Of a DNA stretch of 64,000 bases, positions 25,934 through 51,268 are shown in pieces. The stretch covers positions 677 through 64,676 of the forward strand of contig JAZNCG010000029.1 of the NCBI GenBank assembly GCA_045587405.1, read 5' to 3'. Source of the stretch: Ructibacterium sp. Its GTDB lineage: Bacteria > Bacillota > Clostridia > Monoglobales > Monoglobaceae. Every line of letters starts with the position of its first letter. The stretch's first letter is position 1. A program made the translations under genes and the position numbers. The notes under the pieces were generated by a model. It was not told the origin of the DNA and did not search any database. It worked only from the letters and a program-made list of their open reading frames with translations.

Positions 25934-27118
25934 TTATCTGAATGTTCCTGATGGTACTCCTGTTTTCTTCGAGTGCTTACCCATAAGCTCTTCAAGGCAG
26001 ACATAGCGAACACCGTCAAGAATGTGGTTGAAGTCATCTACAGGCTCATTCAGCCACTTTCCTGTGCTGTCCTGCTGATAGGTATAGTTCTTCAGCTCCT
26101 TGATTGCGTTCACTGAACGGGATGTCACATAGATTTTCTGACAGCTCTTCATGAAGTCAATACCAGCGACCACAGACCCAGCGAATTTCTTGACCGGCTT
26201 GATTTTCAGACCTCCATCTTTCAACTCCTTCACCATGCGAGGGTCGGCTGATTCACTGATGATTTTGTAAGGTGACAGCATCTTCTTTCCGGCTTTGATG
26301 ATGTCTCTTGTCGTCATCTCGGTCTGATAGAACTTCTCATCTATGTACAGGCAGTTTTTATAAAATCCTACTTCAGCAGCAGCTGTCGGGTCATGAGTAA
26401 ATCCGAAGTCAAGACAATTCCATCTCTTTGTAACCCAAGGAGGGATGTCGCCCTCGATAATCTCCCAATTCGAGAAAATCTGCCCCTCGATTGTCGCCCT
26501 CAAGCCGAGACCATAAATCTTCCATTTCCTGATGTCAACAGTACCGTTGGCATAGTTCTCTTCTGTCGGCTCATAAGACAGGATTTTCCGTCTTGAGTTG
26601 TCAGGGATGAAAGGATTATCCAGCATCGTAGAGTGGTCATAATAGCAGTCTGTACGGGTGCAGACTGAATCATAAATCCAATGCTCTTCAGCTGACGGGT
26701 TATAGTCGAGAATACTGAAACGGGATGTTCGCTGCTCCATCTGGTCGAAGTCATCTTTTGATGCTTCCATAGCCTCGTTTATCCAGATTATGTCAGCTGT
26801 GAGACCGTGCAGCTTCTGAGTGTCGTCAAGTCCTATGAACTCGAATACTGTTGAAGCCAGCCGGATAGTCTTTACGGTCTTGTTTATCTTGCAGAACGGC
26901 AGCAGCCCCAAGTTCAGAAGAATCAGGTTGAAGTCGTTCCAGATTGTCGAAGCAATCCATGTTCCTTTCTTACGGGCAATGACAACACGGGTCGGCAAGG
27001 TCGGATTCGAGAGAGCATAGCTGATGAAGAACTGAATAATCGAATATGTCTTTGAACTTCGGGAGCCTCCCTCAAAGACAAAGACACGGTATGACCCCTG
27101 CTGTAAGGCAGACATCAA
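25934..27118 (-). CDS. terL: Terminase large subunit (PBSX/SPP1-type)
   Basis: Walker A GGSRSSKT, Walker B WINEA, nuclease DFGF..DP and NHILDGVRY. Confidence 0.93.
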   Translation of the reverse strand: MMSALQQGSYRVFVFEGGSRSSKTYSIIQFFISYALSNPTLPTRVVIARKKGTWIASTIWNDFNLILLNLGLLPFCKINKTVKTIRLASTVFEFIGLDDTQKLHGLTADIIWINEAMEASKDDFDQMEQRTSRFSILDYNPSAEEHWIYDSVCTRTDCYYDHSTMLDNPFIPDNSRRKILSYEPTEENYANGTVDIRKWKIYGLGLRATIEGQIFSNWEIIEGDIPPWVTKRWNCLDFGFTHDPTAAAEVGFYKNCLYIDEKFYQTEMTTRDIIKAGKKMLSPYKIISESADPRMVKELKDGGLKIKPVKKFAGSVVAGIDFMKSCQKIYVTSRSVNAIKELKNYTYQQDSTGKWLNEPVDDFNHILDGVRYVCLEELMGKHSKKTGVPSGTFR

Positions 27119-27903: not shown

Positions 27904-28650
27904 TTATTCGATGAGTTCGATTCGTTCCGCAAAGACATCTCCGTTTATGAACTTATCTGTCGGCTCATATCCAAACCTTGACATAAATTCCATCTTCGCT
28001 TCTCTTGAGGTAAATGACAGGGTTATGAAGCTGTCCGCTTCCGCTGCTTTCTCTTCGGCTTTCTCCCTTATCTGAGCCTTTGCCTGTTTCACGGCTTCTT
28101 TCTTCTGTTCGTTCAGTTCTTCCACAGGTCTCTGCATTTCCTCAATGTCCTGCTTCATCACATCCACCTTCGGGACATCTATCTTCACGCCAAAGACAGC
28201 AAGGTCAAGATTCGAGAAGCCGGCTCGCTTGGGGTCTATCTGATTCAGCAGCACCTTGACTTTTGGCTCGTTCCATTTTCCCTGAGCCGATGGGTTGTTC
28301 ATGAAGAAGTTGATTTCTATCTCCGTCTTCTGGTCAACATCTATAAGCTCGACCTTGACAGGGTAATCATTCTCAGGATAGTGCGCCATGTCATCGAGAA
28401 GGGCTATCTTCTGATGTCCTGACACGATTGTATATCCCGTCTGCTTGTTCACGATTATACCACCGAGAAGACCGAAATCTTTCAAGCCTCTCTTCAGGGT
28501 CTTTTTCGCATTTTCATCTATCTCACGGGGATTGTAGTCTGCCGGATGAATCTCTGAACGCATCAAGGTCACTGTCTCTGATGCTGTCAATATGAATTGC
28601 AGCCATTCAGGTATTCCACCTGCTTCAGCTGCCTGTGATTTCTTTGCCAT
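27904..28650 (-). CDS. ParB/Srx-like N-terminal domain protein
   Basis: HPADYNPR, IIVN..TG..IVSGHQ motifs. Confidence 0.85.
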   Translation of the reverse strand: MAKKSQAAEAGGIPEWLQFILTASETVTLMRSEIHPADYNPREIDENAKKTLKRGLKDFGLLGGIIVNKQTGYTIVSGHQKIALLDDMAHYPENDYPVKVELIDVDQKTEIEINFFMNNPSAQGKWNEPKVKVLLNQIDPKRAGFSNLDLAVFGVKIDVPKVDVMKQDIEEMQRPVEELNEQKKEAVKQAKAQIREKAEEKAAEADSFITLSFTSREAKMEFMSRFGYEPTDKFINGDVFAERIELIE

Positions 28651-28720
28651 ATATTTCTATTATTCTTGATTCTATGTTTAATCCTTAATAAACTCTGGAG
28701 ATATAATAATATATATTATA

Positions 28721-29410
28721 TTACTCTTCCCCTCGGTGTTCAGCTTTGTAGAGTATTATTTCAGCCTGTGGAAAGGCTTCGAGAATCTTCTTGAGGTCTT
28801 CCGGGTAATGCTGACGGAGGTACAGGAAACATTCTTCACTGAATGTCAGGCCCTGCGACTTCTGCCGTGTGGAGTACCGGACAGGCTCCGGCAATCTGTT
28901 CTGCTTCAGATACGCCAGCACCTCATTGTTGCCCCACCTTGACAACGGATATACATTCTTCGTCTTGGGGTGAATCGCCTGAAGCTCGTACTCTTTGCCC
29001 TTCAGCATTATGCCCCTGTTCATGTTGTCAGACTGCTTCATTCCGTACAGGCAGTAATCTATGCCGAACTTCAGACGGCAATTCTCTGCCACATCGCTGA
29101 ACTTCATCAGTTTCACATCCGGCTGGGGCTGACAGTACAGACCTGTTTTCAGGGTATAGGTGAGATTCCAATGTGGCACTTCATGAAACTCCACATTCGG
29201 ATATCTCAGCTTGGAATACTCTATGTACTTGTTGATGTGTTCCAGACCTTTCACAAAGTACATATACACACAAACCACTCTCCTGAAGTGCGGAGCAACA
29301 AGGTCGAGAAGAGCGATGCTGTCCTTGCCTGCACTATAGAAGAGAATGACTGAATCCGTCTTCTGACGGACCCAGTCAAGGACTGCTTGGGTATGTTCCC
29401 TGTTTGTCAT
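28721..29410 (-). CDS. PAPS-reductase-like (PP-loop) protein
   Basis: YSAGKDS PP-loop, GMKQSD..R and YPLSRW motifs. Confidence 0.85.
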   Translation of the reverse strand: MTNREHTQAVLDWVRQKTDSVILFYSAGKDSIALLDLVAPHFRRVVCVYMYFVKGLEHINKYIEYSKLRYPNVEFHEVPHWNLTYTLKTGLYCQPQPDVKLMKFSDVAENCRLKFGIDYCLYGMKQSDNMNRGIMLKGKEYELQAIHPKTKNVYPLSRWGNNEVLAYLKQNRLPEPVRYSTRQKSQGLTFSEECFLYLRQHYPEDLKKILEAFPQAEIILYKAEHRGEE

Positions 29411-29413
29411 GGC

Positions 29414-29572
29414 TTAACCTGCTGCCAAACCAAGACCACTACGGAGGTCACGATACACCGTTCTGCGAGATACATATCTTCCACCATGCGAGAGCGCACC
29501 GCCTGAAGATGTACTCAGTCCACGCCTACCACCTCGGTAGCCGGATGTCGAATAGGTACTTCTGTTTCCCAT
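29414..29572 (-). CDS. 52-aa Gly/Arg/Ser-rich basic peptide
   Basis: Manual translation MGNRSTYSTSGYRGGRRGLSTSSGGALSHGGRYVSRRTVYRDLRSGLGLAAG; fills the gap between operon genes. Confidence 0.7.
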   Translation of the reverse strand: MGNRSTYSTSGYRGGRRGLSTSSGGALSHGGRYVSRRTVYRDLRSGLGLAAG

Positions 29573-29592
29573 AACGCACTGAATTAAAAAGG

Positions 29593-30000
29593 TTAAACAT
29601 TGGAATCTATGATTGCACCCAGCTTGTAGTCAATCTGAGCGGAAACATATTCTTTGCCCTTGTACTTGTACACCCTTGCATAGGTGTTCCCCTTGTCGTC
29701 CTCTTCTGTGAGGATGAAGATTTCAGCCTCCTTGACAGCCACGACAACCTCCGGGCTGCCGGACTTATCTGCCGTCTTCAGACGGAGTGCATCATATTTG
29801 AGAGGTCTGACATCTATCTCAACCTCATCAGGAACTTCATCATAGGTCTTGTACACCTTTGAAGGGTCGGATTTGTCGAAATACTCGATGTACTTCTGAG
29901 ATGTCTGTGGGCGGATTTCTCTTGTAATGGTGGTCTTCTCGCCCGATACCACCTCGGCAAGCTGCTCTGGCTTCACCGTCAAAGTCAAAATTTCTTTCAT
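29593..30000 (-). CDS. ASCH-domain protein
   Basis: LTLTV...SGEKTTITREIRP motif. Confidence 0.7.
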   Translation of the reverse strand: MKEILTLTVKPEQLAEVVSGEKTTITREIRPQTSQKYIEYFDKSDPSKVYKTYDEVPDEVEIDVRPLKYDALRLKTADKSGSPEVVVAVKEAEIFILTEEDDKGNTYARVYKYKGKEYVSAQIDYKLGAIIDSNV

Positions 30001-30027
30001 TTCTTTTGCTGTTTATGGTGTAAGTTG

Positions 30028-30101
30028 TTGCAGGGGCAGGCATCGAACCTGCGACCTCAGCCAAAGCCACGGCTGCGAGCTGCCAACTGCTCTACCCTGC
30101 G
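30028..30101 (-). ncRNA. Initiator-tRNA-like element with aberrant anticodon loop
   Basis: Cloverleaf: CGCAGGG acceptor with C1:A72, D-arm GAGC/GCTC, stem CAGCC/GGCTG around 8-nt GTGGCTTT, T-arm GCAGG-TTCGATG-CCTGC. Confidence 0.7.
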
Positions 30102-30110
30102 GTGTAGGTG

Positions 30111-30118
30111 CAAAAGTA
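30111..30118 (-). promoter_or_regulatory. -7 box of the putative late-operon promoter
   Basis: TACTTTTG fits TAnnTTTG, about 10 nt before the tRNA-like element. Confidence 0.6.
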
Positions 30119-30280
30119 TCGACAAAGGGCAGGGCTTCAGGTCTTTGACCTGACCTTATTCGTGAATAACGCCCGTATATTCACCGATTAAAGCCGAACA
30201 GGGGCAAGACAAAAAGAAGATAGGGCAAAGCCTGTAAGACCTTGCCCCGCCCGAATGGGTGCGCCCGATTGGGCTGTGTG

Positions 30281-30796
30281 TCAGATGAAATTCAGATTTG
30301 AGTAGAAGCAATCGCTATAGCGAACATAATTGCCGAACATCTTTATATTACCCTTGTCTGTTATAAATGCGAATCGTGACCCACCGATAACGCCCGAAAC
30401 TGCCTTTTTGAATTTGCCCGAATTGATACCGCTGCACTCTATCTCAGGCAGAAGAACATTTCTGAAAGCCGTTTCGCTGTCTGTCATGTCACCGTCAGGC
30501 ACAAGCGACAAAACGCCATTATGAGCGAAAGAAACGCCCGTGTTTTCATCTCTGAACGGGTGACAGTTCGCAAGCCTTATGCTGCCATGCGTGGCAAATC
30601 TGAAATGAATCACTGCCGGCACCTCTGATTTTGCCACACTTTGAAGCTCTTTATAAAACCGCTTAAAGCTCATTGACTTGAAGACCTTGCCAGGCACTGC
30701 GAAGCCGAAGCCGTCTGGGTTTCTCTTTGCACATCTTGAAATGATTTCGTAAGGGGGCAACTGTGCCCCCTGTGGCTTTACTATGATTATACACAT
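30281..30796 (-). CDS. Class II glutamine amidotransferase
   Basis: N-terminal Cys (MC), NPDGFG, HFRFATHG, HPF, AHNG, TDSE motifs. Confidence 0.92.
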   Translation of the reverse strand: MCIIIVKPQGAQLPPYEIISRCAKRNPDGFGFAVPGKVFKSMSFKRFYKELQSVAKSEVPAVIHFRFATHGSIRLANCHPFRDENTGVSFAHNGVLSLVPDGDMTDSETAFRNVLLPEIECSGINSGKFKKAVSGVIGGSRFAFITDKGNIKMFGNYVRYSDCFYSNLNFI

Positions 30797-30816
30797 AACT
30801 GATATATATTTAATTA

Positions 30817-31737
30817 TTAAAACACCTCAAAGACCTCTTTTCTACCCTTGTAGAATGATTTCAGACGGTTTGTCAAAAAAGGCAATTCGTCTATTGTCGT
30901 TGCTGTCAAAGGCTCTTCACTGCTCAGGCTGTACTGTAAGAAGCAACTCAGAAACTCAACCCAATTTCTAATTTTCTCGAAATTTGTCGTACCGTTGTGC
31001 TGTCTGAACTCTATCGTTTTATGAGTGTTGTACGCCATTGCATTGACCTTGAAATATCTGTCATTATCAAAGCCATAGAGCTGTATCTCTCGAATCGTAT
31101 CACAGTCGCCCCCTCTCAGCCTTTCTGCGACCTGTGCCATGCCTTTGCAGTATGTGTTATTTCGCCTGCTGTTTGGCATGAAGCTGTCGATTATTGGCTC
31201 TATAGCTGCATAGTTCATGATAATGCGCTGATACTGCTTTACAGTGAACTTTGAAGCCCCGAAATGAACATGAAGACCGCAAGACCTGTTAACCTGTGCC
31301 CCTGCTTCATTTATAACCTCGCAAACAGTCTTCAGGCTGTCAAGGTTTCGCAAGATTGGCGAAACTACCTCACAGCTGTTCGAGCCTGTAATCGAGCTGT
31401 CTGAACCGAGTTTGTAAGATGTCTTGCTGTCGTGATGATTGTAGCCTGATATATGAGCCTGAAGACCTCTTCTTTCAATCGCTGCCCTGACCGCCTCTCT
31501 GTCGATGTTGAAACATTCGATTTCAACGCCTATAGTAAAACGCCTTGCCCCTCTTGGGGTTGCAGATGTTAAGGCTGCCCCCCCCTGTGACATGAGCTGC
31601 ACACCTCTAACCTGATTGTAGAAAGTGTTAGCTTCATAGACTGTACATTTCAATTCGTTGCAAAGCCTGTGAATCTTGCTTGCCTTTGTACCTCTGTCAA
31701 GAACTATCGCCTTAACCTCGTCAAAAAATGTAGCCAT
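30817..31737 (-). CDS. Amidoligase (COOH-NH2 ligase, Amidoligase_2 family)
   Basis: GVEIEC, D.SI, EVVSP, SCGLHVH, TIEFRQH motifs. Confidence 0.9.
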   Translation of the reverse strand: MATFFDEVKAIVLDRGTKASKIHRLCNELKCTVYEANTFYNQVRGVQLMSQGGAALTSATPRGARRFTIGVEIECFNIDREAVRAAIERRGLQAHISGYNHHDSKTSYKLGSDSSITGSNSCEVVSPILRNLDSLKTVCEVINEAGAQVNRSCGLHVHFGASKFTVKQYQRIIMNYAAIEPIIDSFMPNSRRNNTYCKGMAQVAERLRGGDCDTIREIQLYGFDNDRYFKVNAMAYNTHKTIEFRQHNGTTNFEKIRNWVEFLSCFLQYSLSSEEPLTATTIDELPFLTNRLKSFYKGRKEVFEVF

Positions 31738-31750
31738 ATCTTTGTTTTGT

Positions 31751-32068
31751 TTAGTTGTTAAACTCTCTGCAATTCGCTATTGTCTGAGGCTTGAAATACA
31801 TGTCTCTTTCAACTTTGAGACAGCCCCAAACTCTAAGGCTTTCAAGCTGTGAAAGGGTGAAATAGCCATATTCTTTTTCACCTGCATTGTCAATCACCCC
31901 AAAAAATTCATAGTCGTTTGTGCCTATCTTGTTAGCTTCAAGCACATACCATGTGTAATTTGCAAGAAAGAACTTGCAGATGATTGTAGCTTCTTTCTTT
32001 TTGCCATCTTGTGAATAGATAGGGTACTTTGCTAATCTGTTAGCGATTTCTTTTGTAATGAGTTTCAT
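31751..32068 (-). CDS. DUF2958-like protein
   Basis: KFF..TWYVLE, EYGYFTLSQLE, VERDMYF motifs. Confidence 0.75.
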   Translation of the reverse strand: MKLITKEIANRLAKYPIYSQDGKKKEATIICKFFLANYTWYVLEANKIGTNDYEFFGVIDNAGEKEYGYFTLSQLESLRVWGCLKVERDMYFKPQTIANCREFNN

Positions 32069-32115
32069 AATGCTGTACTTTATTATTATTTATATATATC
32101 TTCATTTTGTTTCTG

Positions 32116-32223
32116 CAAATGTAGATATAAATAAATTAACATGCAAGTATTTTTCAAAAATAATTTATACAAATCTTAATTTTATAGAAAAATTTGCATT
32201 TATAAATAAAGTGCGTATATTTG
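32116..32223. promoter_or_regulatory. Divergent promoters (amidoligase operon / HTH gene)
   Basis: Minus-strand TACATTTG at 32116-32123; plus-strand TTTG 32193-32196, 19 nt, TATATTTG 32216-32223. Confidence 0.7.
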
Positions 32224-32249
32224 CACAACTTTTATAATAATTTAGATTT

Positions 32250-32534
32250 ATGAACATTTTAGAGACAGTAAAACAGATTTGCAGGGTCAGGGGCATGTCT
32301 CTTGCTGATGTCGCCTTGAAAATGGGTGTACCTGCTTCTTCTTTATCTCAGATATTGAGAGGCAACCCCACACTTTCAAAACTCAACGACATAGCCAACG
32401 CCCTAAATGTGCCGGTAGCTGAACTGCTCGCAGAAGGCAGCACCAGAGCGCAGGTAGAGTGTCCGCACTGTGGCAAGACATTCCCACTCGACATCAAGGC
32501 AGCCAAGGAGGTGCCGGCAGATGGAGAAGCCTAA
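32250..32534 (+). CDS. XRE-family HTH regulator with C-terminal CPHCG zinc knuckle
   Basis: GNPTLSKL..IANALNV and CPHCGK motifs. Confidence 0.88.
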   Translation: MNILETVKQICRVRGMSLADVALKMGVPASSLSQILRGNPTLSKLNDIANALNVPVAELLAEGSTRAQVECPHCGKTFPLDIKAAKEVPADGEA

Positions 32535-32946
32535 CAGACAAAACACTCTGTATCTCCCAATCAAGCAGGTCTTCTTTGATGAGATTGTAGCTGGTACCAA
32601 GAAAGTGGAATACCGGGAAATCAAAGAGGGTGTGACAGCGAACAAATACCTGATTAAGGATGATATGACCGGGTATAAGCTCAACCCTGAAAATGTCGAT
32701 GACCCTGAAGGTACCTATTTCATTGACGACTACAACGACGGCAAGTTCCCTTTCCTGCCGAGACAGTACAAATACCTGAACTTGGCTGTAGGCTATGCCA
32801 AAGAGAGAGACACGGCCATCGTAGAAGTGACGGGCTTTTCATTCACGCCCCACATGATAAGAAACGACAAACATGGCAATCCGTGCTATGCGTTCTGGAC
32901 CATCAACATTCATCTGGGGCAGGTCGTCACAGTTCACCGCAAGTAA
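32521..32946 (+). CDS. ASCH-domain protein
   Basis: LYLPIKQVFFDEIVAGTKKVEYREIK; start set at MEKPN. Confidence 0.8.
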   Translation: MEKPNRQNTLYLPIKQVFFDEIVAGTKKVEYREIKEGVTANKYLIKDDMTGYKLNPENVDDPEGTYFIDDYNDGKFPFLPRQYKYLNLAVGYAKERDTAIVEVTGFSFTPHMIRNDKHGNPCYAFWTINIHLGQVVTVHRK

Positions 32947-32955
32947 GACAGACAC

Positions 32956-32998
32956 AGAAAAAAGCCGAGCAGCATCAGAGCTGTTCGGCTTCTTTCAT
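32956..32998. terminator. Bidirectional intrinsic terminator
   Basis: AAGCCGAGCAGC / GCTGTTCGGCTT stem with A/T flanks, between convergent genes. Confidence 0.7.
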
Positions 32999-33011
32999 CA
33001 TGTCGCGCCTG

Positions 33012-33440
33012 TTACAGGTCAGAGAGATATGCGTCTATCTTCTCAAGGGCAAGATTGCACTCGTTTCTGAACTCAGGATATGTCTCATACCAAGACACGG
33101 AGGTAGAACGCATCTTGTACAGGGCGGTACTCGCACTTATTCCGAGAGCTGTGGCGATGGAGCTGCGAAGTTCCTTGTTGATTCTACCTCCAAGAAGAGA
33201 AGCTGGAGAGTACAGATACAACACTATGAACAGGAACTGCTTGTTATTGCTGGTACCGTCAGCCTTGAAGCCGGATTCAGCAGCGATTTCAACATATCTG
33301 TCGTGAATAGCCACAATGAGCGACAGGTCTTTCATCTTTGGAGCAAAGACCTGTGCGAACTGCACATTTGCTTCAGCTGCCCTGATACAGGCATCTTTCA
33401 ATTCCTTGACGGTGTTGATAAATGGCACTAACTTGTTCAT
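33012..33440 (-). CDS. Hypothetical phage protein (possible late transcription regulator)
   Basis: Last gene of the early/middle operon; helical. Confidence 0.55.
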   Translation of the reverse strand: MNKLVPFINTVKELKDACIRAAEANVQFAQVFAPKMKDLSLIVAIHDRYVEIAAESGFKADGTSNNKQFLFIVLYLYSPASLLGGRINKELRSSIATALGISASTALYKMRSTSVSWYETYPEFRNECNLALEKIDAYLSDL

Positions 33441-33451
33441 ATCTTCAGGAT

Positions 33452-33976
33452 TTATCTTCGTTTATTGATTCTTGTCGGTATCTTCGCATGGTCCCATGCC
33501 AGCAGAGCAGCATCCCTCTTTTCCTGATTGGTCTGTTTCGTCCAGCCCGTCAGCTCGACAAACTCTTCATGAGTTATCTTCCCGTCCTTGCCTTTCCACA
33601 GATTGAAGCCGTGAAACTGAAGCGACAGAGGTCTCTTCTCAACGACCTCGATTCCCCAATGACGGCACATTTCAATAATCTTCTTTCCGGTCTCATGATT
33701 AGCCCCCACATCCTTTGCTATCTTCTCCCCTCGATTGCCATAATATCCGTGATAGTTGCTCTTGAGATTCAGCCATCCGGCTTCCACCACAACACACAGA
33801 GATTTCTTCGCAACCCTTTCCGCATAGTCTCGATGGTACATCAGGAACTCCAGCAGTTCAGGGAAAGTCAATGTCTGAAGAGACATGAACTTGAGCAGTG
33901 TCGTATCAAGAAGTGCGACACCGCTCTTTTCCCTGTCAGGGTCAATGCCGATAATGATGTCAGCTCTGTTCTTCAT
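33452..33976 (-). CDS. RuvC-like Holliday junction resolvase
   Basis: IIGIDPD..KSGVA, VVEAGW and RDAALLA RNase H-fold motifs. Confidence 0.72.
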   Translation of the reverse strand: MKNRADIIIGIDPDREKSGVALLDTTLLKFMSLQTLTFPELLEFLMYHRDYAERVAKKSLCVVVEAGWLNLKSNYHGYYGNRGEKIAKDVGANHETGKKIIEMCRHWGIEVVEKRPLSLQFHGFNLWKGKDGKITHEEFVELTGWTKQTNQEKRDAALLAWDHAKIPTRINKRR

Positions 33977-34330
33977 CGCTTTCGCCCCTGATTGATGTGT
34001 AGATTCCAATGCACAACCACTCAAATTCAAGCTCACGGCTGTGCATGTTGATGTTGATAGACGGAATCAGGCTCCAGAACTTGAAGTCTATATCCACATT
34101 GGTAGTAATTGTTAATCTCTTTCTATTCATAGCAGTTTTAATTATGGCGAAATCGCCTGTTTAACATCAGAACAATGTCGGGTTACATTCCCCGGCAGAA
34201 TACCGGGCAAGCATGGTGTCTAACTCCTGTTCAAGAGCCTTTGCCTGCTTCAGGGCTTCCTTTGACCTCGTCTTGAAATACAACCGCTGAGCATCACGCA
34301 CCTGCATAGCCTTTTTGATTATTGCATCTT

Positions 34331-35200
34331 TCATAATTCAATTCCAAAATAATTCTCAAGATATTTCTTGGTATCTAAATCGTTAAAGAACATACCCCCC
34401 CCCATTTTTATTTTATAATCCTCATAGCTGTCACAGAACAGATTGTGAAAAACAATGTTATAAGCATTGCCAAATTTCTTGTGTGATTCAGCATTGGGAT
34501 GAGTATCTAACCATTTCTGAGCTGACTTAATCAGCCTCTTCAGCAGCTTCGGGTACTTCAGATAATCTTTCACTCCATTATCAGACTGCAAAGGACAGCC
34601 GAGACAGCCCAAACGCCTTTCTACATGGAAGTTTCCCTGTTCATCATAATACAGAGGGTGACAGGTGATTCCCCGTTCCTTGACAAACCTCTCCACATCA
34701 CTGTCCGTCCAATCCAAAATAGGAAGATAGAGCTTGACCCTTTCACTCTTCGAGTACACCCTGCAAATCTCCGGCTCGCTATATCGTTTCGCTCTCTTGG
34801 TACTTTCCGACCTCCGGATTCCTTGTACAGCTCTGTCAAGCACCTTGTATTCCTTGAGGTGAGAGCAGCATGTCCTCGCTCTGCGTGTCGGACAGCCTGA
34901 CATTTCCACGACTTCAAAGAACTTCATTTTTGGTGGCAAGATTTCAACTCCCTTGCTTCTGACATGGCGAATTGTACCCGGTGGGTCAATAGTGGTATTC
35001 TTGTAGATTGCCCGGAATGGAATACCGGCCATCTTTGCCAGCTCAAGAATGACATCAGAATCCTTTCCACCCGAATATGATATTTCTATCGGACCATCTT
35101 GAGGAATGTTTTTAAGCAGCCGGATTGCCCGTGCTTTCTTTTTCTCATATTTGGCAAGTTCATCTTCCTCGACTTGCATGAAATCGTCTGTTTCTTTCAT
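34331..35200 (-). CDS. PAPS-reductase family protein with Fe-S cysteines
   Basis: SGGKDS, TCC..LKE, GIRRSES..R, RLGCLGCP motifs. Confidence 0.88.
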   Translation of the reverse strand: MKETDDFMQVEEDELAKYEKKKARAIRLLKNIPQDGPIEISYSGGKDSDVILELAKMAGIPFRAIYKNTTIDPPGTIRHVRSKGVEILPPKMKFFEVVEMSGCPTRRARTCCSHLKEYKVLDRAVQGIRRSESTKRAKRYSEPEICRVYSKSERVKLYLPILDWTDSDVERFVKERGITCHPLYYDEQGNFHVERRLGCLGCPLQSDNGVKDYLKYPKLLKRLIKSAQKWLDTHPNAESHKKFGNAYNIVFHNLFCDSYEDYKIKMGGGMFFNDLDTKKYLENYFGIEL

Positions 35201-35289
35201 TTTCTTGACCTCCTTTTCCTTGGTTTACGCATCTGAGCAGTTAATCTCCGAGCCTCCGGGAATATAGTGACCGCAGTCCATACATCGTT

Positions 35290-35595
35290 TTATTTCTTGC
35301 ATAGTATCTCTCCTTCTCGTTTTAATTGCACACACGCCAGATACAGGGCATCTATCAGTTCTTTAGAACGCCATTTCCTCGATTCTCCCGACTTGAAAGC
35401 ACTGTATATGACGACCCATTCAATAAGTTCAGTTCTAATGACAGGACATATCAGGAAGTCTATCAAGTCGCCTATGGAGTAGTCGCCCGGATATGCTATC
35501 CATGCTCCACCATTCGGGATATACACATCGGCAGGCTCCGGAAAGCCCAGCCTCTTGAGATGTGCAGTCTGATTATGGTCTGTAAATTTCTTCAT
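35290..35595 (-). CDS. Hypothetical protein
   Basis: MKKFTDHNQ ORF overlapping the upstream gene's stop. Confidence 0.55.
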   Translation of the reverse strand: MKKFTDHNQTAHLKRLGFPEPADVYIPNGGAWIAYPGDYSIGDLIDFLICPVIRTELIEWVVIYSAFKSGESRKWRSKELIDALYLACVQLKREGEILCKK

Positions 35596-35956
35596 CTTTG
35601 TTTCTCTCATAATGTTCACATCCCTCGGACACTCTCGGCATGGCAACCCATCCATCATTACACAAGGCATCCTGCCAACCCTCCCACATGTGCTTACTAT
35701 TGTAAAGCAGTTCACCTGAATGTCCGCATTTATGTTTATCAAAATACTTTTCTGCATCGGCTGAATATGGGTATTCACCACATACGACAGCTTTATGCTG
35801 TTCGATTTCATCCTGATAGTGACGGCACGAATAGCACAGACAGATGTTGCAAGGATTCTTCTTGCAGCTCTTTTCATGAGCTATCATAGCTGGCTTCGTT
35901 TTGCTGACCTTTCCGCAGAACTCACATTCAAATGTTGGTTTATCGTAAATTTTCAT
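35573..35956 (-). CDS. Cys-rich zinc-finger-like hypothetical protein
   Basis: CEFCGK...HEKSC and further Cys pairs. Confidence 0.65.
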   Translation of the reverse strand: MKIYDKPTFECEFCGKVSKTKPAMIAHEKSCKKNPCNICLCYSCRHYQDEIEQHKAVVCGEYPYSADAEKYFDKHKCGHSGELLYNSKHMWEGWQDALCNDGWVAMPRVSEGCEHYERNKDEEIYRP

Positions 35957-36402
35957 CTTCTACCTTTTTGAAAGTTCGCTTGATTCCCCTTTTCGCCCAA
36001 GAGTGACACTCCAGCTGTATCTTCGTGCCATCGCATAGAGGATATTGACCTGCACTTTTCGGAGGGCGTGCCCTGAAGATATCGCAATCCCTACAGCTCC
36101 AATCTTCAGGGTTTTCTTCACGCACCTCTTCATATTTGATTCCGTTGAGTTCAATCATCGCTGTGGTACTTGCTGACTTCATGGCCATAGTTGAATTCCG
36201 TGTTTTCCGAATCAAGCTCTACCCGGTATTTGCGAAGCTGCTCCCATTGAGTTTGAAGCCATGTAGGGTCAAATAGAGGTTCATCATCTTCAAAGTAAAG
36301 CCACAGAGGGTTACTGAATGCTTCTTTGATTTTGGATTGTACCACCGAAAGAAAGACCAGAAGAGCAAGCAGTAGAATTATTATCATTGCTATCACTATC
36401 AT
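35940..36402 (-). CDS. Two small overlapping hypothetical ORFs (35940-36215 Cys-containing; 36151-36402 with N-terminal TM)
   Basis: ORF track and operon packing. Confidence 0.45.
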
Positions 36403-36782
36403 ACCTCACCCTCCTGTATTCTTTCACCCAGCTCTATGATGAACACATCATTAGACCCTGCGCCCCATTCCTTTTTACCTTTTCCAAATCTGATATTCTT
36501 GATTCTGAAGGTCATTGTCCGCTTGGTGTAGCCATAGCGGAACTTGACCGCATCGAACTTCTTGAACTTGCCGGGCTTGCTTGCCCCATAGGTGCAGAAG
36601 CATTGTCGGCACTTTGGGAAGATGTCATCAGCACATCCGTTTTTATCATTCCTGAAACATTCCATCAGGCGTTTTCTCCAGAATGGCTTATCTTCCCTGT
36701 ATTCCTCCAGCTTCTCGCCCCTTTCTATCATATCATACCACTTAGCTATCAGTGGCAGATGCAGGATTCTCATTTTCTCCAT
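36399..36782 (-). CDS. ASCH-domain protein
   Basis: LHLPLIAKWYDMIERGEKLEEYRE motif. Confidence 0.85.
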   Translation of the reverse strand: MEKMRILHLPLIAKWYDMIERGEKLEEYREDKPFWRKRLMECFRNDKNGCADDIFPKCRQCFCTYGASKPGKFKKFDAVKFRYGYTKRTMTFRIKNIRFGKGKKEWGAGSNDVFIIELGERIQEGEV

Positions 36783-36783
36783 A

Positions 36784-37119
36784 TCAAATATCTTTTTTTA
36801 ACCACACTTGGCTCGATTCCGCTTCAAAGCCCATTCTCTTATACCACTCTCTAACCCAATCGTCATGGTCACTTCGGAGAGATATTGAATTACAGCCCCA
36901 ATCTTTTGCACACTCAAAACACCAATTAAGAATGGATGTTGCACCACCTTGTTTTCTTATGCTTTCGTGAACATACAGGTCAGATATAACGGCTTCTTGC
37001 GGAGTATCGTTATAGAAGCTCAATCTACAAGAAACACGGCCATCATCAGAGAATACGAAAAGAACTTTGTAATCATCCCAAATTTGAGGGACGGAATTGA
37101 AATTGAATTTAGATTTCAT
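36784..37119 (-). CDS. GNAT-family acetyltransferase
   Basis: LYVHESIRKQGGAT acetyl-CoA motif and WYKRMGF. Confidence 0.85.
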   Translation of the reverse strand: MKSKFNFNSVPQIWDDYKVLFVFSDDGRVSCRLSFYNDTPQEAVISDLYVHESIRKQGGATSILNWCFECAKDWGCNSISLRSDHDDWVREWYKRMGFEAESSQVWLKKDI

Positions 37120-38562: not shown

Positions 38563-38568
38563 ACCGCA

Positions 38569-39180: not shown

Positions 39181-39202
39181 GTTGTTTTGTTGTTAGTAGT
39201 GA

Positions 39203-41251: not shown

Positions 41252-41262
41252 GTGTCTATGAT

Positions 41263-43833
41263 TTAGTTATCCAATAATTCCAAGTCGATGACCTCTTCTT
41301 CAGCTTCGTAAGCCATGAAGTCGAACAGGGTAGGTGAGGTCGCTTCCATTTCCGCTTCCCTGAGATATTCAAGCCCGTCTTTCCAATAGTCTGCGTTCAG
41401 CTCTGTTGACAGACCTTTTCGCCCCATCTTTATAGCACAATACGGCACCGTCTGTATTCCTCCGAATGGGTCAAAGACCAAATCGCCTTTGTTCGAGTAC
41501 CGCTCTATCAGCCTTTCCACGATGTCAAGCTGGAGAGGACAGACATGCATCTGTAGGCACTTCTGCGACTGCCTTGAGTTGAGTGTCCGCATCCTTGTGA
41601 CATCATCCCAGATGTAAGGGCTTCGGCTTGACGGGTCAACGGCCATGAATGTCTTCGGCAGCTTGTCGTATGCTTCAAGTTCCTCGGCAAACGCCACATG
41701 GTCCTCGAAGTTGTAGAGGTGTTCTGCCGTGAACTTCCTGAAATATCTCCGGATGCCTCCTATATCCATGCTCTTGACATCGTTCATGGAGAGAAGCCTG
41801 TTACCGCTCGACTTCCAATCTGCGTGAGCATCAATCTGCCATCTTGCAAGGCTGTATTCCTCCTTTGCCTTGGTCACAGGCACATCGGCATAAGCCCTTG
41901 AGGTGTCTGTCGGAAGCTTGCGGAACAGCAGCACATATTCAGGACAGCCAACCCCCATCTTCGAGCCGTCTTTCCTCATTTCGGAGTAACCGAGCCTGTA
42001 GGTCTGATTGTTTTCCCTGACTACATCCGTGTCGATGGTGATGCGACCCATGTATCTGAAGCCGTGTCTGATGTAGTGGAACACGCACATGTCGCTGAAA
42101 GGGTCAATCGTAGGCATACCGTCACCTGTGGCATTTCCGAAAAGCACTCTATCCTTGACATGAACGCAGCACAATCTGCCCGGCTTGAGTATTCGCATGA
42201 GTTCAGGTGTCAGGTAGTCCATCTGCTTGAAAAATTCATCGTTGTCGGAGTTGAAGCCGAAATCGTTGTAGCTGGCAGTGTACTCATAGTGATTGCTGAA
42301 AGGCACGGAGGTCACAATCAGGTCAACGGAGTTGGCAGTCATCTGCATACACTCAAGCACATTGTCGTTGTTGATTGCGTAGTATGTTTCCCCCTTTGCT
42401 TCCTGTCTGAGCGAGAACATGTAACGCATGAGCTTCTGTTTCACATCGAGACCGAAAAGACCGTTTTTCCTGATGATGTCTGCCATCTTCTCCACCATCT
42501 TGTTGTGCTGCTCCCACTTCGCCATGAACGACTTGAAGATTTCAGCTTCGCTCTCTGCATAAACGAGGTACAGGTCAACGGGGTACTTCTGCATGAAGCG
42601 GTGGATTCGTGCGATAGCCTGAAACTTATCGTTGAATCTGTAGTCAATGAACATTATCGCCTTGTGGCAGTGATATTGGAAGTTCAGACCTTCACCGAGC
42701 ATCTCCGGCTTCGCTGCAAGATACTTGAGCTTTCCGTCCTTGAAGTCCATGATGTTCTGGTCGGCTTCCTCTTCATCCTGTGAGCCATATACAGCCTTGC
42801 AGCCCGGTATCGCCTTACAGAGTGCCTGTCTCTCATCTTCGAGGTCATGCCAAAGGAGGAAATGGTCATCTTTGTTCTCAGGTCTGTTGATAATCTCTAC
42901 CACACGGGCAATCTTATTGCTCATGCTGTCACGCCTTTCCCTCGCAGCCTGATTCAGACCGAGGGCAGCTTCACGGAACATCTTGCCCTGCCCGTCCTTA
43001 TCGGTACCGGCTGTCGAATGGTCAACACTTACGATTTCCTCATGCACTCGCAGTTCAGGAAGCTGGTAGCCTACATCGGGATAGCCGAGGTCAGAGGGCT
43101 TTGTGAGGAACAACGCCCATGTTGCGACCCATAGCCAGAACTCATTTTCCTTGTTGGGATATAGTGTCAGGTTGTTAGCCTTTGTGCTGTCTCTCTTGAA
43201 GAATCTTGTCAGAGCCTGCCCCGTGTCCATGATGCCGAGATAGCCGGAATAGTGGATAAGTTCTTTGAGCTTGTTAGGTGACGGGGTAGCTGTCGCCACA
43301 AAGCGGTACTTCACTTTCGAGAACAGGGGAAGAAACTCCTGAAATGTCTTCGTGCCGTAACTTCTGAGGACGGAAGCTTCGTCAAGTGATGTCGCTGTAA
43401 AATAGTCGGGGTCAATTCTCACGCCATCCTCGCCATCTCGCACCCTCTCGTAGTTGGTTATCATGATTGGGGTCGGGCAAGCCCTGACCTCTTCCATGTT
43501 ACGCACATAGGTCACATTCATGCCGAGGTGCTGTTCAGCCTGTGTAAGGAACTCCACGACAACCCTTTTAGGGCAGACGATGAGACCGTAGCCACCCTCA
43601 CGGGCGATGATTACTCTGAGGATTTCGAGCTGGGTCACTGTCTTCTGCATACCGAAGCTGCTGAAGATTGCCCTGCAACCACCGAGGACAGCCCACTTCA
43701 CCGTGTCACGGACATGTGGGAAGAGTGTCGGGGAAAGTTCGCTGTCGCTGACCTCGAAGCCTGTCTGAGAGCTGACGGCCATCTTGTTCTGCAAGAACTC
43801 ACGATATGGGATTTGTGTCTTATTCTGTGTCAT
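41263..43833 (-). CDS. SNF2-like helicase fused to an N4-C/N6-A DNA methyltransferase
   Basis: GMQKT, LDEAS, ATATP, GLNFQ helicase motifs; TSVPF and FDPFGG MTase motifs. Confidence 0.88.
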   Translation of the reverse strand: MTQNKTQIPYREFLQNKMAVSSQTGFEVSDSELSPTLFPHVRDTVKWAVLGGCRAIFSSFGMQKTVTQLEILRVIIAREGGYGLIVCPKRVVVEFLTQAEQHLGMNVTYVRNMEEVRACPTPIMITNYERVRDGEDGVRIDPDYFTATSLDEASVLRSYGTKTFQEFLPLFSKVKYRFVATATPSPNKLKELIHYSGYLGIMDTGQALTRFFKRDSTKANNLTLYPNKENEFWLWVATWALFLTKPSDLGYPDVGYQLPELRVHEEIVSVDHSTAGTDKDGQGKMFREAALGLNQAARERRDSMSNKIARVVEIINRPENKDDHFLLWHDLEDERQALCKAIPGCKAVYGSQDEEEADQNIMDFKDGKLKYLAAKPEMLGEGLNFQYHCHKAIMFIDYRFNDKFQAIARIHRFMQKYPVDLYLVYAESEAEIFKSFMAKWEQHNKMVEKMADIIRKNGLFGLDVKQKLMRYMFSLRQEAKGETYYAINNDNVLECMQMTANSVDLIVTSVPFSNHYEYTASYNDFGFNSDNDEFFKQMDYLTPELMRILKPGRLCCVHVKDRVLFGNATGDGMPTIDPFSDMCVFHYIRHGFRYMGRITIDTDVVRENNQTYRLGYSEMRKDGSKMGVGCPEYVLLFRKLPTDTSRAYADVPVTKAKEEYSLARWQIDAHADWKSSGNRLLSMNDVKSMDIGGIRRYFRKFTAEHLYNFEDHVAFAEELEAYDKLPKTFMAVDPSSRSPYIWDDVTRMRTLNSRQSQKCLQMHVCPLQLDIVERLIERYSNKGDLVFDPFGGIQTVPYCAIKMGRKGLSTELNADYWKDGLEYLREAEMEATSPTLFDFMAYEAEEEVIDLELLDN

Positions 43834-43854
43834 TTTCTGTCTGTTGTTTACTGA

Positions 43855-45592: not shown

Positions 45593-45595
45593 AGC

Positions 45596-47380: not shown

Positions 47381-47407
47381 TTTCTTTTGTTTGTTGAGGG
47401 TTAATGA

Positions 47408-48331: not shown

Positions 48332-48353
48332 TGTGATATTGTTTTATGAATGT

Positions 48354-48940: not shown

Positions 48941-49906
48941 TCAGCCGTCCAGCTGCTTCAGAAGATTCTTCAGACCTCTGCCGTCCCGAATGGTCTTGCC
49001 GGTAGCCCAGCCACTGTAAGGAAAGAACTTCACCGTCTTGCCCTTGTGGGTGAACTCTATTCGGGTGCCGTCTCTGTAGGTTATCTCATAGCCTCTGCCC
49101 TCAAGCTGTGCGACTGCATAGGCTATGCGTTCAGGCTCAAGCCGTGCCTGTCTCTCGGTGTCAAGTCGTGCCATATCTACATATATCTTTCTTCTCGCTC
49201 TCGTTCTGCCCTCTCTTCACAGGCATCGAGATATGCGTTATAATCCTCGTCCGCATCATAGTCCGGGTCTCTCTCAGGGTCTGCCGGGTGCATGTAAAAA
49301 TCTCGTTTCGGGTGCCAGCTCATAGCTCTCTGATATTATGGGTTTGTCTTCGGGGTTTTGTGCAGCGGTCTGGTACTGTGACCGCTGCCGTTCTCTCATT
49401 GCCCTGTAGCCCTCTTTCAGGCTCTCGAACTCTTCAGGCGTTAGTCTCATTCTTTTCAGATAGTTCGGGGTGCAGCCTTTCAAATAAGTCGCTGACCGCT
49501 ATAGCTGTCGGCAAGACTGCGACCATGTAAATGATATTGAAAAGGTACTGTACGCCCTGAGACTGACCGAAAACGGTCACCATGCTGTCTGTCACTGTGA
49601 TGTAGCCACATGCCAAGACTGCGACAAGGGCGAGGGCGTTGATGATTGCCTGCTGTCTGTGATTGCGTTTCATTGCCTGATATTTTAGAGGTTTACCGTT
49701 TCGCCTGTGGCAACTGTCGCCACTATTGCGATGTCGTGAAAATTGGGGCGTTTTGGGTCAAATTTCATGAGGTACAGGGTGCAGCCTGTCTCTATGCTCT
49801 TCTTTTGCATCGCTGCTGTCGCCTCTGCCTGTGACATGCCGTCAACAACTGCGACCCGTTCTCTCTGGGCTGCTGAATTGAGCTTCACGAACTGATATGT
49901 AGCCAT
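48941..49906 (-). CDS. Cluster of small early hypothetical ORFs (48941-49174, 49434-49673 membrane, 49685-49906)
   Basis: ORF track, co-directional. Confidence 0.55.
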
Positions 49907-49918
49907 GATTTCAGGGGT

Positions 49919-50239
49919 TTAGAGGGGTAAGACATTTGCAACCTTGAAGCATCTGAACTCTTGCCTTTCAGTGTCAAAATAGACCTGCACTGTAGGGTTT
50001 TTCAGTCGCCTGTCATTGCCCTCTATTGCCGGCATGAGTTCGCTCTTGAGTGTGCCGTATGCTTCTCTGATTGAGCCGTCAACTTTCTGATAATAGAATT
50101 TGACTATACCTTTGAGCATCTGCTTCTTTAACTTGAAGACCTGCCAAGCCTGTTTGAGAGCTTCAGAAAGCTCGAAGCCGTTTCGCTTGACGAACTGCCA
50201 AGCCATTTGCATGATAGTGCGTAAATCAGTCTTTTTCAT
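49919..50239 (-). CDS. SH3-like beta-barrel (WYL_2/DUF2693-like) protein
   Basis: VKFYYQKVDGSIREAYGTL and YFDTERQEFRCFK. Confidence 0.8.
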   Translation of the reverse strand: MKKTDLRTIMQMAWQFVKRNGFELSEALKQAWQVFKLKKQMLKGIVKFYYQKVDGSIREAYGTLKSELMPAIEGNDRRLKNPTVQVYFDTERQEFRCFKVANVLPL

Positions 50240-50260
50240 GTCGTCAGTCTTTAGAGGGGT

Positions 50261-50701
50261 TTAGATTGTTTCAAGTGAGTTTCTGAGGTCTGCGAGGGCT
50301 TTAGCTATCTTCTTTGCATTGCGAAGCACCTTTTGACCTGTTTCGCTTTCATAAGCCTGTTTTGATTCTTTTATAGAAGAATGTGAGAGAGCTTCAAAGC
50401 CCTGTGCCATCACTTCACATCTTTCAAGTTTTGCCATCATTGACTTGTAGTCGCTCTTGATAGCTCTTAAATAGGTTTCGTGTGTCATAGCTGTAGGGGT
50501 TTACTTCTGAAAATACTTTGTCATGTCTTCTACAGTGTAGTAGTCAGGCTCATAGATGCCCTGCTTTTTGTCTTCTACCTCAAGCACATTCTTTATATAA
50601 TCGTGTGCAGCTTCAGGCGTTGAGAACTTCTTTGAGGTGTAGGCTTCAGAATCGCCCTTCTCGACCTCTTCTCTAACGAAAATCATAAATACCTTTTTCA
50701 T
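50261..50701 (-). CDS. Two immediate-early hypothetical ORFs (50261-50488, 50501-50701)
   Basis: First genes after the leftward promoter. Confidence 0.65.
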
Positions 50702-50738
50702 CTTCTTTGTTGTTTGTTGTTGTTTGCTTTTCTTTTGT

Positions 50739-50777
50739 TATCTTTGAAACGAATTTCAAAACGACTTTGCAAAGGTA
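50739..50777. promoter_or_regulatory. Face-to-face lysogeny/lysis switch promoters
   Basis: Plus TATCTTTG at 50739-50746, minus TACCTTTG at 50770-50777. Confidence 0.65.
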
Positions 50778-50851
50778 AACAAAGTTTTCATATCTGCAAA
50801 CTATTTTGTGAAAAAGTTTACATTTTGTTTGCAAAAAAGTTTTTACGACCT

Positions 50852-51268
50852 ATGTACATAAATGTAAGTCAGAGATTTATACAGGTGATAGAACACCTGA
50901 AAGATAGTAAACAGCTCAAGAATCAAGCTGAATTAGTTACCATTTTAGAGGTTTCAAAGGGGTATGTTTCGCAGCTTGTAAACGGAACAAGAGAGCCAAG
51001 CGAGACAGTGGTTAGCAAATTAGTAAACTATTTTCCTGAGATTAACGCCCACTGGCTTTTTACCGGTGAAGGAGACATGCTGAACACTCAGCCGAAAAAT
51101 TCTCAGGTAATTGGGAACAACAGCGGAACAGCGATAAACGGAGACGGGACGGTAGTTCACCCAGCCGGAGACAGCCGGACCATAGAGCGGATGCAGAATC
51201 AGATAGACGAACTTCTCGCACAGAACGGAAAGCTCCTTGTCATCATTGACAGATTGACACAGAAATAA
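50852..51268 (+). CDS. CI-like XRE repressor (no S24 peptidase domain)
   Basis: HTH (ELVTILEVSKGYVSQLVNG) and INAHWLFTGEGDM; divergent from early genes. Confidence 0.85.
   Translation: MYINVSQRFIQVIEHLKDSKQLKNQAELVTILEVSKGYVSQLVNGTREPSETVVSKLVNYFPEINAHWLFTGEGDMLNTQPKNSQVIGNNSGTAINGDGTVVHPAGDSRTIERMQNQIDELLAQNGKLLVIIDRLTQK

Follow-up and report, generated by a model that had tools for sequence, protein, structure and literature searches.

Loss of short words under selection is well known from phage genomes, and neither site avoidance nor site-free early DNA is a new idea. The pre-early, first-step-transfer region of T5 is free of sites, EcoP15I sites in T7 are strand-biased, transcripts without ACA resist MazF, and the RegB nuclease of T4 cuts at GGAG. 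Here we analyze a stretch of 64,000 nucleotides from an assembly labelled Ructibacterium sp. (GCA_045587405.1, contig JAZNCG010000029.1, positions 677 to 64,676; hereafter “the window”), of which roughly the first 52.2 kb are a temperate prophage with relatives in Bacteroidales genomes. In two early/accessory operons of this prophage, each diverging from a helix-turn-helix (HTH) repressor gene, the trinucleotide GGA and its reverse complement TCC are missing from both strands. We refer to these two stretches as voids, and describe their extent, the selection that maintains them, their conservation in related phages and the set of genes with which they occur.

Classical restriction-site avoidance is similar in that a short word is removed by selection, and this prophage is also without GATC and ACGT over ~52 kb. 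There, however, the words are palindromes of 4–6 bp that are avoided genome-wide, whereas here an asymmetric word of three to four letters is missing from two operons only, with normal density elsewhere, and some relatives lose it on one strand relative to transcription. The T5 and T7–EcoP15I cases share with ours that early DNA, or one orientation of a site, is kept free of a restriction target, but there the cause is that DNA enters in a set order, or that two inverted sites are required; our void travels with its genes, occurs twice per genome and has an orientation that follows transcription. Nor do we find a single site-free stretch at the first-entering end as in T5, since the two voids lie 17 kb apart and a void follows the amidoligase gene where that gene has been relocated. 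Escape from MazF or RegB would concern the sense strand only, whereas in the window both strands, and the promoter-proximal parts of other transcripts, are site-free.

With respect to the form of the motif, the nearest described systems are the phosphorothioation systems Dnd, Ssp and type 4 of bacteriophage exclusion (BREX). They are common in gut Bacteroidales, read short (3–4 nt), asymmetric and degenerate motifs, often on one strand, employ enzymes of the 3′-phosphoadenosine-5′-phosphosulfate (PAPS) reductase type (DndC, SspD, BrxP) with ParB-like partners, and have motifs that are under-represented at gene boundaries (PMC12914056). They differ in that no GGA/TCC motif has been reported for them, and the phage proteins considered below are short and single-domain (289 and 229 amino acids, against 779 for BrxP). 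The ParB-activated T-dioxygenases are a second parallel, in which a ParB-like protein of a phage partners an enzyme that modifies DNA after replication in contexts of 2–3 nt; that enzyme is an Fe/2-oxoglutarate dioxygenase and not, as here, a PP-loop ATPase, and motif-free early operons do not come up in the passages searched (PMC13229309). In terms of gene content, the cassette of an Amidoligase_2 and a class-II glutamine amidotransferase (GATase) is known from phages and conjugative elements, and the first void holds exactly this pair together with a DUF2958 gene; as far as we could find, its motif-free state has not been described. The voids do not depend on the cassette, as the cultured phages RAP44 and BS-TP2 lack it and still have voids.

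Extent of the voids and selection on the word

Void 1 (29916..32461, 2546 bp) lies in the gap of 2549 bp between the GGA at 29913-29915 and the TCC at 32462-32464, and void 2 (49265..50983, 1719 bp), at the genetic switch, lies in a gap of 1722 bp from 49262 to 50984. The window holds 1766 GGA/TCC sites in total, or one per 36 bp, and ~70 would therefore be expected in void 1. The density in the rest of the phage, where the word has its normal frequency of ~30 sites per kb, predicts ~48 TCC and 29 GGA in void 1, and ~81 TCC and 49 GGA in the two voids together; none is present. The Poisson chance of a gap the size of void 1, as inferred from these counts, is ~e^-70 per site. The gap at the switch is the sole other outlier in the window, the third-longest (294 bp) being at chance level, and in the 1.8 Mb assembly that holds the window no GGA/TCC gap outside the two voids exceeds 469 bp. 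When the 32 trinucleotide pairs are ranked by longest gap over mean spacing, GGA/TCC scores 70 and the runner-up 19.6, and no other trinucleotide comes near a comparable depletion in the voids. The avoided word is asymmetric (GGA/TCC, with GGAR/YTCC as its core), unlike a palindrome of 4–6 bp.

An earlier, sequence-only reading had placed the limits of void 1 at these same positions on both strands and had correctly listed what the void covers (GATase_4, Amidoligase_2, DUF2958, HTH_3, a tRNA-like element and promoter boxes). Its estimate of roughly 60 expected sites was slightly low against the ~70-77 that we compute, and the gap statistics over trinucleotide pairs, which it proposed as a check, leave GGA/TCC standing alone. 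It had also argued that the absence is not a matter of codon bias, and this holds: the word is absent in all reading frames, on both strands and in non-coding DNA. When the nine coding sequences of the voids are re-coded with phage codon usage, the mean number of sites is 79 and the minimum 57 in 2000 trials, against 0 in the real sequences, which rules out codon bias and amino-acid composition as the cause. GGA makes up 27% of glycine codons elsewhere and 0/59 in the voids, and TCC makes up 15% of serine codons elsewhere and 0/67 in the voids. Sites formed across codon junctions are equally absent, with xxG|GAx at 0/114 and xxT|CCx at 0/29, and the ~190-230 bp downstream of each promoter within a void are likewise site-free.

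Two further candidates were rejected. Likeness to the Shine-Dalgarno sequence would predict a loss of related words, yet when the sense strands of eleven void operons are pooled, GAG and AGG occur at 0.92 and 0.75 of expectation, and GAGG and AAGG are outside the 26 most depleted tetranucleotides; only words containing GGA are gone. In this pooled set, GGAA stands at 0/166, GGAG at 0/121, CTCC at 0/77 and TTCC at 0/91. A general effect of low GC content is also rejected, as the voids have 43–45% GC, like the rest of the phage. We regard it as firm that there is strong, ongoing selection against an asymmetric word of 3–4 nt in certain repressor-controlled early/accessory operons and the stretches adjacent to their promoters.

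Two side observations concern the same regions. Secondary voids of CCG/CGG are found at 31491-32412 (921 bp) and 50178-50983 (805 bp), the promoter-proximal halves of both GGA voids, and also in three relatives (L001, L003 and L009; 632-1087 bp); in the pooled void operons, CCG on the sense strand is at 0.4 of expectation. Just outside void 2, in the 3′ part of the CI-like gene, ten plus-strand GGA fall within ~160 nt (51071-51227), mostly 7–20 nt apart, which is clearly above the average density.

Conservation, transcription and the lineage that carries the voids

The void is retained in relatives that have diverged considerably. In a metagenomic relative whose amidoligase is 72% identical (L003), a stretch of 2667 bp with the same boundaries has no site, although 242 substitutions in 1527 nt separate it from the window in the void and the flanks differ by 2%; when these 242 substitutions are placed at random, 16.6 new sites arise on average, and zero sites are obtained in 0/5000 trials. 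The amidoligase segment has a mosaic character: it is 84% identical, and its flanks 98%. In a second relative with an 89% identical amidoligase (L001), the corresponding 2747 bp hold two sites. A Candidatus Cryptobacteroides prophage (G001; amidoligase 62% and WYL_2 66% identical) has exactly two voids in 60 kb, over the same two operons, and there the avoided word is GGAD/HTCC, with GGAC tolerated.

For a broader survey, we collected 80 loci with the amidoligase profile. Most Bacteroidales prophages among them, dozens in all, avoid at least GGAR/YTCC over 2–3.5 kb, where 15–39 sites are expected, and in several the avoidance extends to every GGAN (Alistipes L020, Rikenellaceae L045, Dysgonamonadaceae L089 and Tannerella L093), whereas the Cytophagales loci, in which the amidoligase lies outside a phage context, show no avoidance. 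Tolerance decreases from GGAC to GGAT and then to GGAA and GGAG, and in many lineages the void is kept, absolute and sharp-edged, at 40–60% protein identity. Two Prevotellaceae prophages exclude another word in its place: over ~1.2 kb, their amidoligase gene is without CCC/GGG instead of GGA, where ~30 are expected (L026, 9650-10835; L028, 9658-10836). In loci such as L022, L024, L039 and L042 the amidoligase–GATase pair lies downstream of the portal gene and has a void of its own there, and the HTH/DUF2958/ASCH region immediately upstream of the PAPS-reductase gene retains a second one. It is thus the genes that a void goes with, and not a place on the map. A nucleotide search of a phage collection gave only two short, weak matches, and a single-protein scan of viral contigs gave none. 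Among the loci found, a 1.5 kb contig (L017, JAFVSB010000158.1) carries an amidoligase and a DUF2958 protein 100% identical to those of the window and an HTH protein at 98%, and is filed under a “Clostridia bacterium” metagenome-assembled genome from sheep colon; that label is probably a binning error, because all other relatives are from Bacteroidales.

In some relatives the avoidance has a direction. In Lepagella muris (L040) and a Muribaculaceae locus (L049), as well as in L038 and L044, YTCC is avoided by a divergent pair of operons (~1.8 and ~4.9 kb), each on its own sense strand. In L040 and L049, sense YTCC has 2 sites in ~6.6 kb, against ~32 expected from flanking genes, sense GGAR is normal with 57 sites, and the asymmetry flips at the divergent promoter. 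Four other loci (L005, L032, L077 and L084) avoid GGAR on the sense strand only. Because the sense-only avoidance flips with the direction of transcription, the constraint must act through transcription or on the transcript; the word is read relative to transcription, and either the template strand or the transcript must lack it. The contig of the Lepagella muris element (G002:C11) also holds, at ~140-158 kb and ~40-55 kb from that element, a second prophage-like region with HTH, WYL_2, DUF2958, ASCH, PAPS-reductase, ParB and TerL genes, and with a small GGAR/YTCC void of its own at the HTH/WYL_2 genes.

The voids of the window, L003 and G001 are site-free on both strands and do not show the sense-only pattern. 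Counted from putative promoter boxes, the voids of the window cover the first 231-232 nt of both regulator transcripts and ~190 nt of the late transcript, and all three transcripts carry sites further on; an explanation by survival of messenger RNA alone does not cover these transcript starts. The sequence-only reading had proposed a constraint at the level of double-stranded DNA. This is too simple, as the avoidance of YTCC on the sense strand only in L040 and L049 implies an effect on the template strand or the transcript. Its further suggestion, that the motif is necessarily absent from genes transcribed ahead of replication, is not upheld, since the replication and recombination genes at 33-48 kb (among them those for a single-stranded DNA-binding protein (SSB), a YqaJ exonuclease and an SNF2-methylase) have a normal density of sites. 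That the selection is tied to the direction of transcription and common to a widespread phage lineage we regard as firm.

The 229-amino-acid PAPS-reductase-like protein encoded near void 1 has homologues in cultured phages, which show with which genes the voids occur. In the Riemerella phage RAP44, which has no amidoligase, the strongest trinucleotide void is that of GGA/TCC (28653-29917; score 27.5, background at most 12.5), and it covers genes for a WYL_2-like protein and an anti-repressor just upstream of the PAPS-reductase, ParB and terminase genes; the switch region of this phage is covered by a TTCC void as well. The Bacteroides phage BS-TP2, again without an amidoligase, has a GGAR/YTCC void (score 31.6) that extends from a divergent HTH gene through small open reading frames (ORFs) into the ASCH gene preceding the PAPS-reductase, ParB and terminase genes. 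In both phages the ASCH, PAPS-reductase and ParB genes adjoin the void directly. In four Bacteroidota phages free of this module the longest GGA-type gaps are at background (scores ~8-10), and none has a void: B40-8 of Bacteroides fragilis, the B. dorei prophage Hankyphage p00, phage018a of P. gingivalis, an amidoligase carrier, and TCUEAP2 of Elizabethkingia, in which WYL_2 is 63% identical to that of the window and its gene holds seven GGA/TCC sites. From this distribution it follows that the void goes with the lineage bearing ASCH, PAPS-reductase and ParB-like genes, and not with the amidoligase, with WYL_2 or with Bacteroidota hosts generally. The co-occurrence lends indirect support to the idea that these phages may mark their own DNA.

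Genes in and around the voids

The prophage has 45–47% GC and the host flank at 52.7-64 kb ~39%. Its integrase (17-976, Phage_int_SAM_5), Phage_CI_repr repressor and Terminase_3 protein are those of a temperate siphovirus type, with an SPP1 portal seen in relatives. Structural and packaging genes occupy the minus strand up to TerL (25934-27118, Terminase_3). The module follows on the same strand, with the ParB-N-like protein of 248 amino acids (27904..28650), whose counterparts in RAP44 and BS-TP2 are annotated “ParB-like nuclease”, its partner, the 229-amino-acid PAPS-reductase-like PP-loop protein (28721..29410, PF01507), in the late module adjoining the terminase genes, and the ASCH-domain protein (29593..30000), encoded by the first gene of the late operon. 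The latter matches BS-TP2 gp52 (annotated ASCH) at 36% identity (E 2e-24), and the first 88 nt of its gene are in void 1. The ParB-like protein is similar to the N-terminal portion of ParB-methylase fusions.

Within void 1, a tRNA-like element with an irregular anticodon loop (30027..30101, minus strand) lies between the first late gene and a TAnnTTTG box that is a putative late promoter (30111..30118, minus strand); ARAGORN draws the element as a tRNA-like cloverleaf with a four-base “anticodon” (ggct), and it has no Rfam match. The void-1 operon, on the minus strand, begins with the DUF2958 gene (31751..32068; PF11171, 2e-10), continues with Amidoligase_2, a carboxylate-amine ligase (30817..31737; PF12224, 8e-37), and ends with GATase_4, the class-II glutamine amidotransferase (30281..30796; PF13230, 4e-7); the adjacency of the last two is kept in most Bacteroidales loci examined. 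Back-to-back TAnnTTTG boxes (32116..32223) would serve the operon (32123 and 32162, minus) and the divergent gene for a Cro/CI-type HTH_3 regulator (32216, plus; gene at 32250..32534, plus), of which the first 212 nt are in void 1 and the last 72 nt hold 4 sites. The end of this gene is overlapped by an ORF of 141 codons (32521..32946, plus strand) with an ASCH-like N-terminal motif, as read from the sequence, and void 1 stops just before it; its product is unrelated to the GIY-YIG nuclease that L040 encodes in this position, and we found no relative of solved structure.

Void 2 covers an operon of five small ORFs on the minus strand (49434..50701; 66, 75, 106, 73 and 79 amino acids), with WYL_2 at 49919-50239, and the first 270 nt (to 50983) of the CI-like repressor gene (50714..51268, plus strand; HTH_3/Phage_CI_repr); the face-to-face TAnnTTTG boxes of the switch (50739, plus; 50777, minus) also lie in it. 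WYL_2 is an Sm-like SH3 barrel that is 60–66% identical across phages of gut Bacteroidales, Riemerella and Elizabethkingia, a degree of conservation that is unusual in small early proteins of phages. One public run (X12) contains a variant in which 250 bp (50262-50513) are swapped for 8 letters; the missing part covers the ORF of 75 amino acids, which is dispensable, because this variant has lost it. Contigs of three metatranscriptome runs and one possible RNA run cover 31001-51000 fairly evenly and do not discriminate between operons.

Among the replication and recombination genes between the voids are those for a second PAPS-reductase-like protein (34331..35200, minus strand, 289 amino acids) and for an SNF2 helicase fused to an N6/N4 DNA methyltransferase (41263..43833, minus strand, 856 amino acids), the latter with weak matches to the helicases BrxHII and DpdE. 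The PAPS-reductase-type PP-loop domain (PF01507) thus occurs twice in the phage; the best match of the 289-amino-acid protein in the PADLOC defence library is BrxP (1.4e-11), and matches to DndC are weak. Elsewhere, an RVT_1 reverse transcriptase (4251-5306) adjoins an RT-17 RNA of Rfam (5306-5387, minus strand, 53.8 bits), which fits a diversity-generating retroelement. GATC is absent up to 52817 and ACGT up to 52245; the host assembly is poor in both overall (878 GATC and 266 ACGT in 1.8 Mb), and the flank at 52.8-64 kb has 34 GATC and 19 ACGT, ~6 and ~11 times the average density of the assembly. Either a foreign origin of this flank or an error in the binning of the contig may lie behind this.

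Possible causes of the exclusion

The reading we favor, tentatively and at somewhat less than an even chance, is that the site is the target of a site-specific DNA mark, or nick, which the phage lineage itself makes and which hinders reading of the template strand. The mark would sit on the backbone or on a base at GGA(N)/(N)TCC, or a nick would occur during its installation, and the candidate maker is the head of the late operon adjoining the terminase genes, that is, the ASCH protein, the PAPS-reductase-type PP-loop enzyme (related to BrxP and DndC) and the ParB-like protein. A mark or nick in the template strand would hinder the host RNA polymerase, and operons that need to be read immediately from marked DNA would lose every site. 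Lineages that mark one strand would avoid one orientation only and those that mark two strands both orientations, so that a single principle could account for both classes. The variation of the avoided word among lineages (GGAN, GGAD or GGAR, and CCC/GGG in L026 and L028) is as expected of enzymes with diversifying specificity. There are precedents, which are not proof: BrxP-type systems in gut Bacteroidales place single-strand phosphorothioates at short, degenerate, asymmetric 4-nt motifs (PMC12914056), and ParB-like proteins activate phage DNA-modifying enzymes of 2–3 nt specificity (PMC13229309).

Several observations weigh against a self-made mark. The main weakness is that the replication genes, which are also read from incoming DNA, keep their normal density of sites, and we know of no evidence that phosphorothioates block bacterial RNA polymerase. 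Among 61 phage ORFs compared with Pfam, ten of them also with PADLOC, neither an ATPase of the DndD/SspC/BrxC type nor a sulfur donor of the DndA/IscS/SspA type was found, although an IscS of the host might take the donor's place, and the 229-amino-acid protein matches BrxP weakly. L065 and L072 have the module, and what they avoid is sense GGAG, and that only weakly; no void is seen in Lactobacillus phage LR1, whose sole PAPS-reductase homologue is a distant one; and in L040 the nearest set of PAPS-reductase, ParB and TerL genes is ~50 kb away and probably belongs to a second prophage. Because the module lineage may be monophyletic, the association is not phylogenetically independent.

A defense system acting on DNA is a possible alternative, though we doubt it. 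Incoming DNA would be nicked, marked or bound at GGA(R)/(Y)TCC by a system that the host or a resident prophage encodes, and the first-transcribed counter-defense operons (amidoligase–GATase, DUF2958 and WYL_2) would have been purged of the site; conceivable kinds are a phosphorothioate-sensing nickase, a system like BREX type 4 or an ADP-ribosyltransferase like DarT, and the system would act without immediate destruction of the genome. The genes in the voids are indeed typical early accessory or counter-defense genes under their own repressors, and the strand-specific pattern fits damage to the template strand. L040-type phages, moreover, avoid the word with no module of their own in the 20 kb examined, on a host contig shared with a module-bearing prophage, which fits a factor acting in trans, and the modification systems of gut Bacteroidales do use short asymmetric motifs of 3–4 nt (PMC12914056). 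A cutting enzyme, however, would still find the remaining genome exposed despite a local void, and there is hardly any change in the avoided core between gut Bacteroidales and Riemerella (Flavobacteriales), whereas the specificities of host defenses usually differ between strains. The four void-free Bacteroidota phages, with B. fragilis, B. dorei and Elizabethkingia among their hosts, also speak against it; Elizabethkingia and Riemerella belong to the same host family. In the host assembly, which is 81% complete, so that this is weak evidence and not evidence of absence, we found neither PglZ nor a PAPS-reductase gene outside the prophage. Somewhat less likely still is that the transcripts were selected to resist an endoribonuclease cutting at YUCC and/or GGAR, be it a host toxin, an abortive-infection RNase or a shut-off enzyme of the phage such as an ASCH protein, with the surviving messages having lost their sites. 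Activities of this kind exist: besides RegB, MazF-mt3 cuts YUCCU, and an ASCH protein with ribonuclease activity on single-stranded RNA has been described. Two ASCH-like genes flank void 1, and both the avoidance of sense YTCC that flips with transcription in L040 and L049 and the sense-only avoidance of GGAR in L005, L077, L084 and L032 would be accounted for. But in the window and most relatives both orientations are absent, which would take two RNases of exactly reverse-complementary specificity, R/Y degeneracy included. The HTH and CI-like genes are site-free over their first 212 and 270 nt, respectively, although their own transcripts hold later sites and the putative boxes give no antisense transcript there, and the ~190 nt of late transcript in the void are followed by tens of kilobases full of sites.

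The remaining explanations are much less probable. That the voids are the legacy of a donor of odd composition, or of a motif-specific mutator such as a TCC-directed deaminase eroding sites without selection, seems to us highly unlikely. The mosaic amidoligase segment would suit it, and APOBEC enzymes leave such footprints in early genes of animal viruses (PMC8115780), but the deamination product TTC/GAA is not enriched (TTC at 53 against 80 expected in void 1, and 51 against 54 in void 2), other k-mers are near normal, and the void is absolute, sharp-edged and persistent at 40–60% protein identity. We give very little credence to avoidance of the protospacer-adjacent motif (PAM) of a CRISPR system, by which spacer acquisition or targeting would be blocked in early-expressed regions. 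PAMs of 2–4 nt read on either strand would match the word in form, and early regions are effective targets for some systems (PMC7515739); on the other hand, eleven natural Riemerella spacers match RAP44, and GGA/TCC lies beside 0/11 of the protospacers (PMC5006608). A system that cuts DNA kills the phage wherever it cuts, which would make a local void useless, and the motif is the same across hosts that carry different CRISPR types. Just as improbable is that the void is the DNA that enters first and, like the T5 pre-early region, is free of host nuclease sites. Void 1 lies directly upstream of the terminase genes and, to judge from gene order, would be roughly the last DNA packaged and the first injected in the first headful, but void 2 is 17 kb away, the Terminase_3 type, taken to mean headful packaging, implies permuted ends, and the amidoligase void lies downstream of the portal gene in L022, L024, L039 and L042.

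The most far-reaching form of a self-made mark, which on present evidence we think unlikely to hold in full, is that temperate phages of Bacteroidota, as a widespread family, mark or nick their own DNA about every 36 bp at an asymmetric site of 3–4 nt, that a mark on the template strand stops the host RNA polymerase, and that site-free windows are a hard-wired programme choosing the operons that can be read from incoming DNA. If this is true, gene regulation and counter-defense would be written into the absence of a motif, a mode undescribed for any phage, and a self-mark that blocks transcription would be categorically new. In the literature, we found no earlier description of motif-free early operons or of the amidoligase cassette as a counter-defense, and no account of an asymmetric trinucleotide being wholly excluded from a local stretch, with a link to the strand of transcription and with conservation from gut Bacteroidales to Riemerella phages.

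That a word of three bases is excluded completely, and that this exclusion is conserved, points to an undescribed activity which recognizes GGA/TCC, as a site of 3–4 bases, in phage DNA or RNA. Very few activities of such short specificity are known, and we know of none for GGA/TCC. The phages that hold the exclusion are an abundant group in gut and animal-associated Bacteroidota, and since the exact motif, the strand rule and two cultured model phages (RAP44 and BS-TP2) are at hand, a direct search for the responsible enzyme is feasible. A DNA mark, should that be the cause, would amount to a new epigenetic system of phages that has its expression programme built in; a defense or an RNase would instead represent a new type of short-motif immunity, with amidoligase–GATase, DUF2958 and WYL_2 as its first-line counter-measures. 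Local k-mer voids could also become a general, purely computational route to early and counter-defense operons and to the motifs of unknown nucleic-acid-targeting systems.

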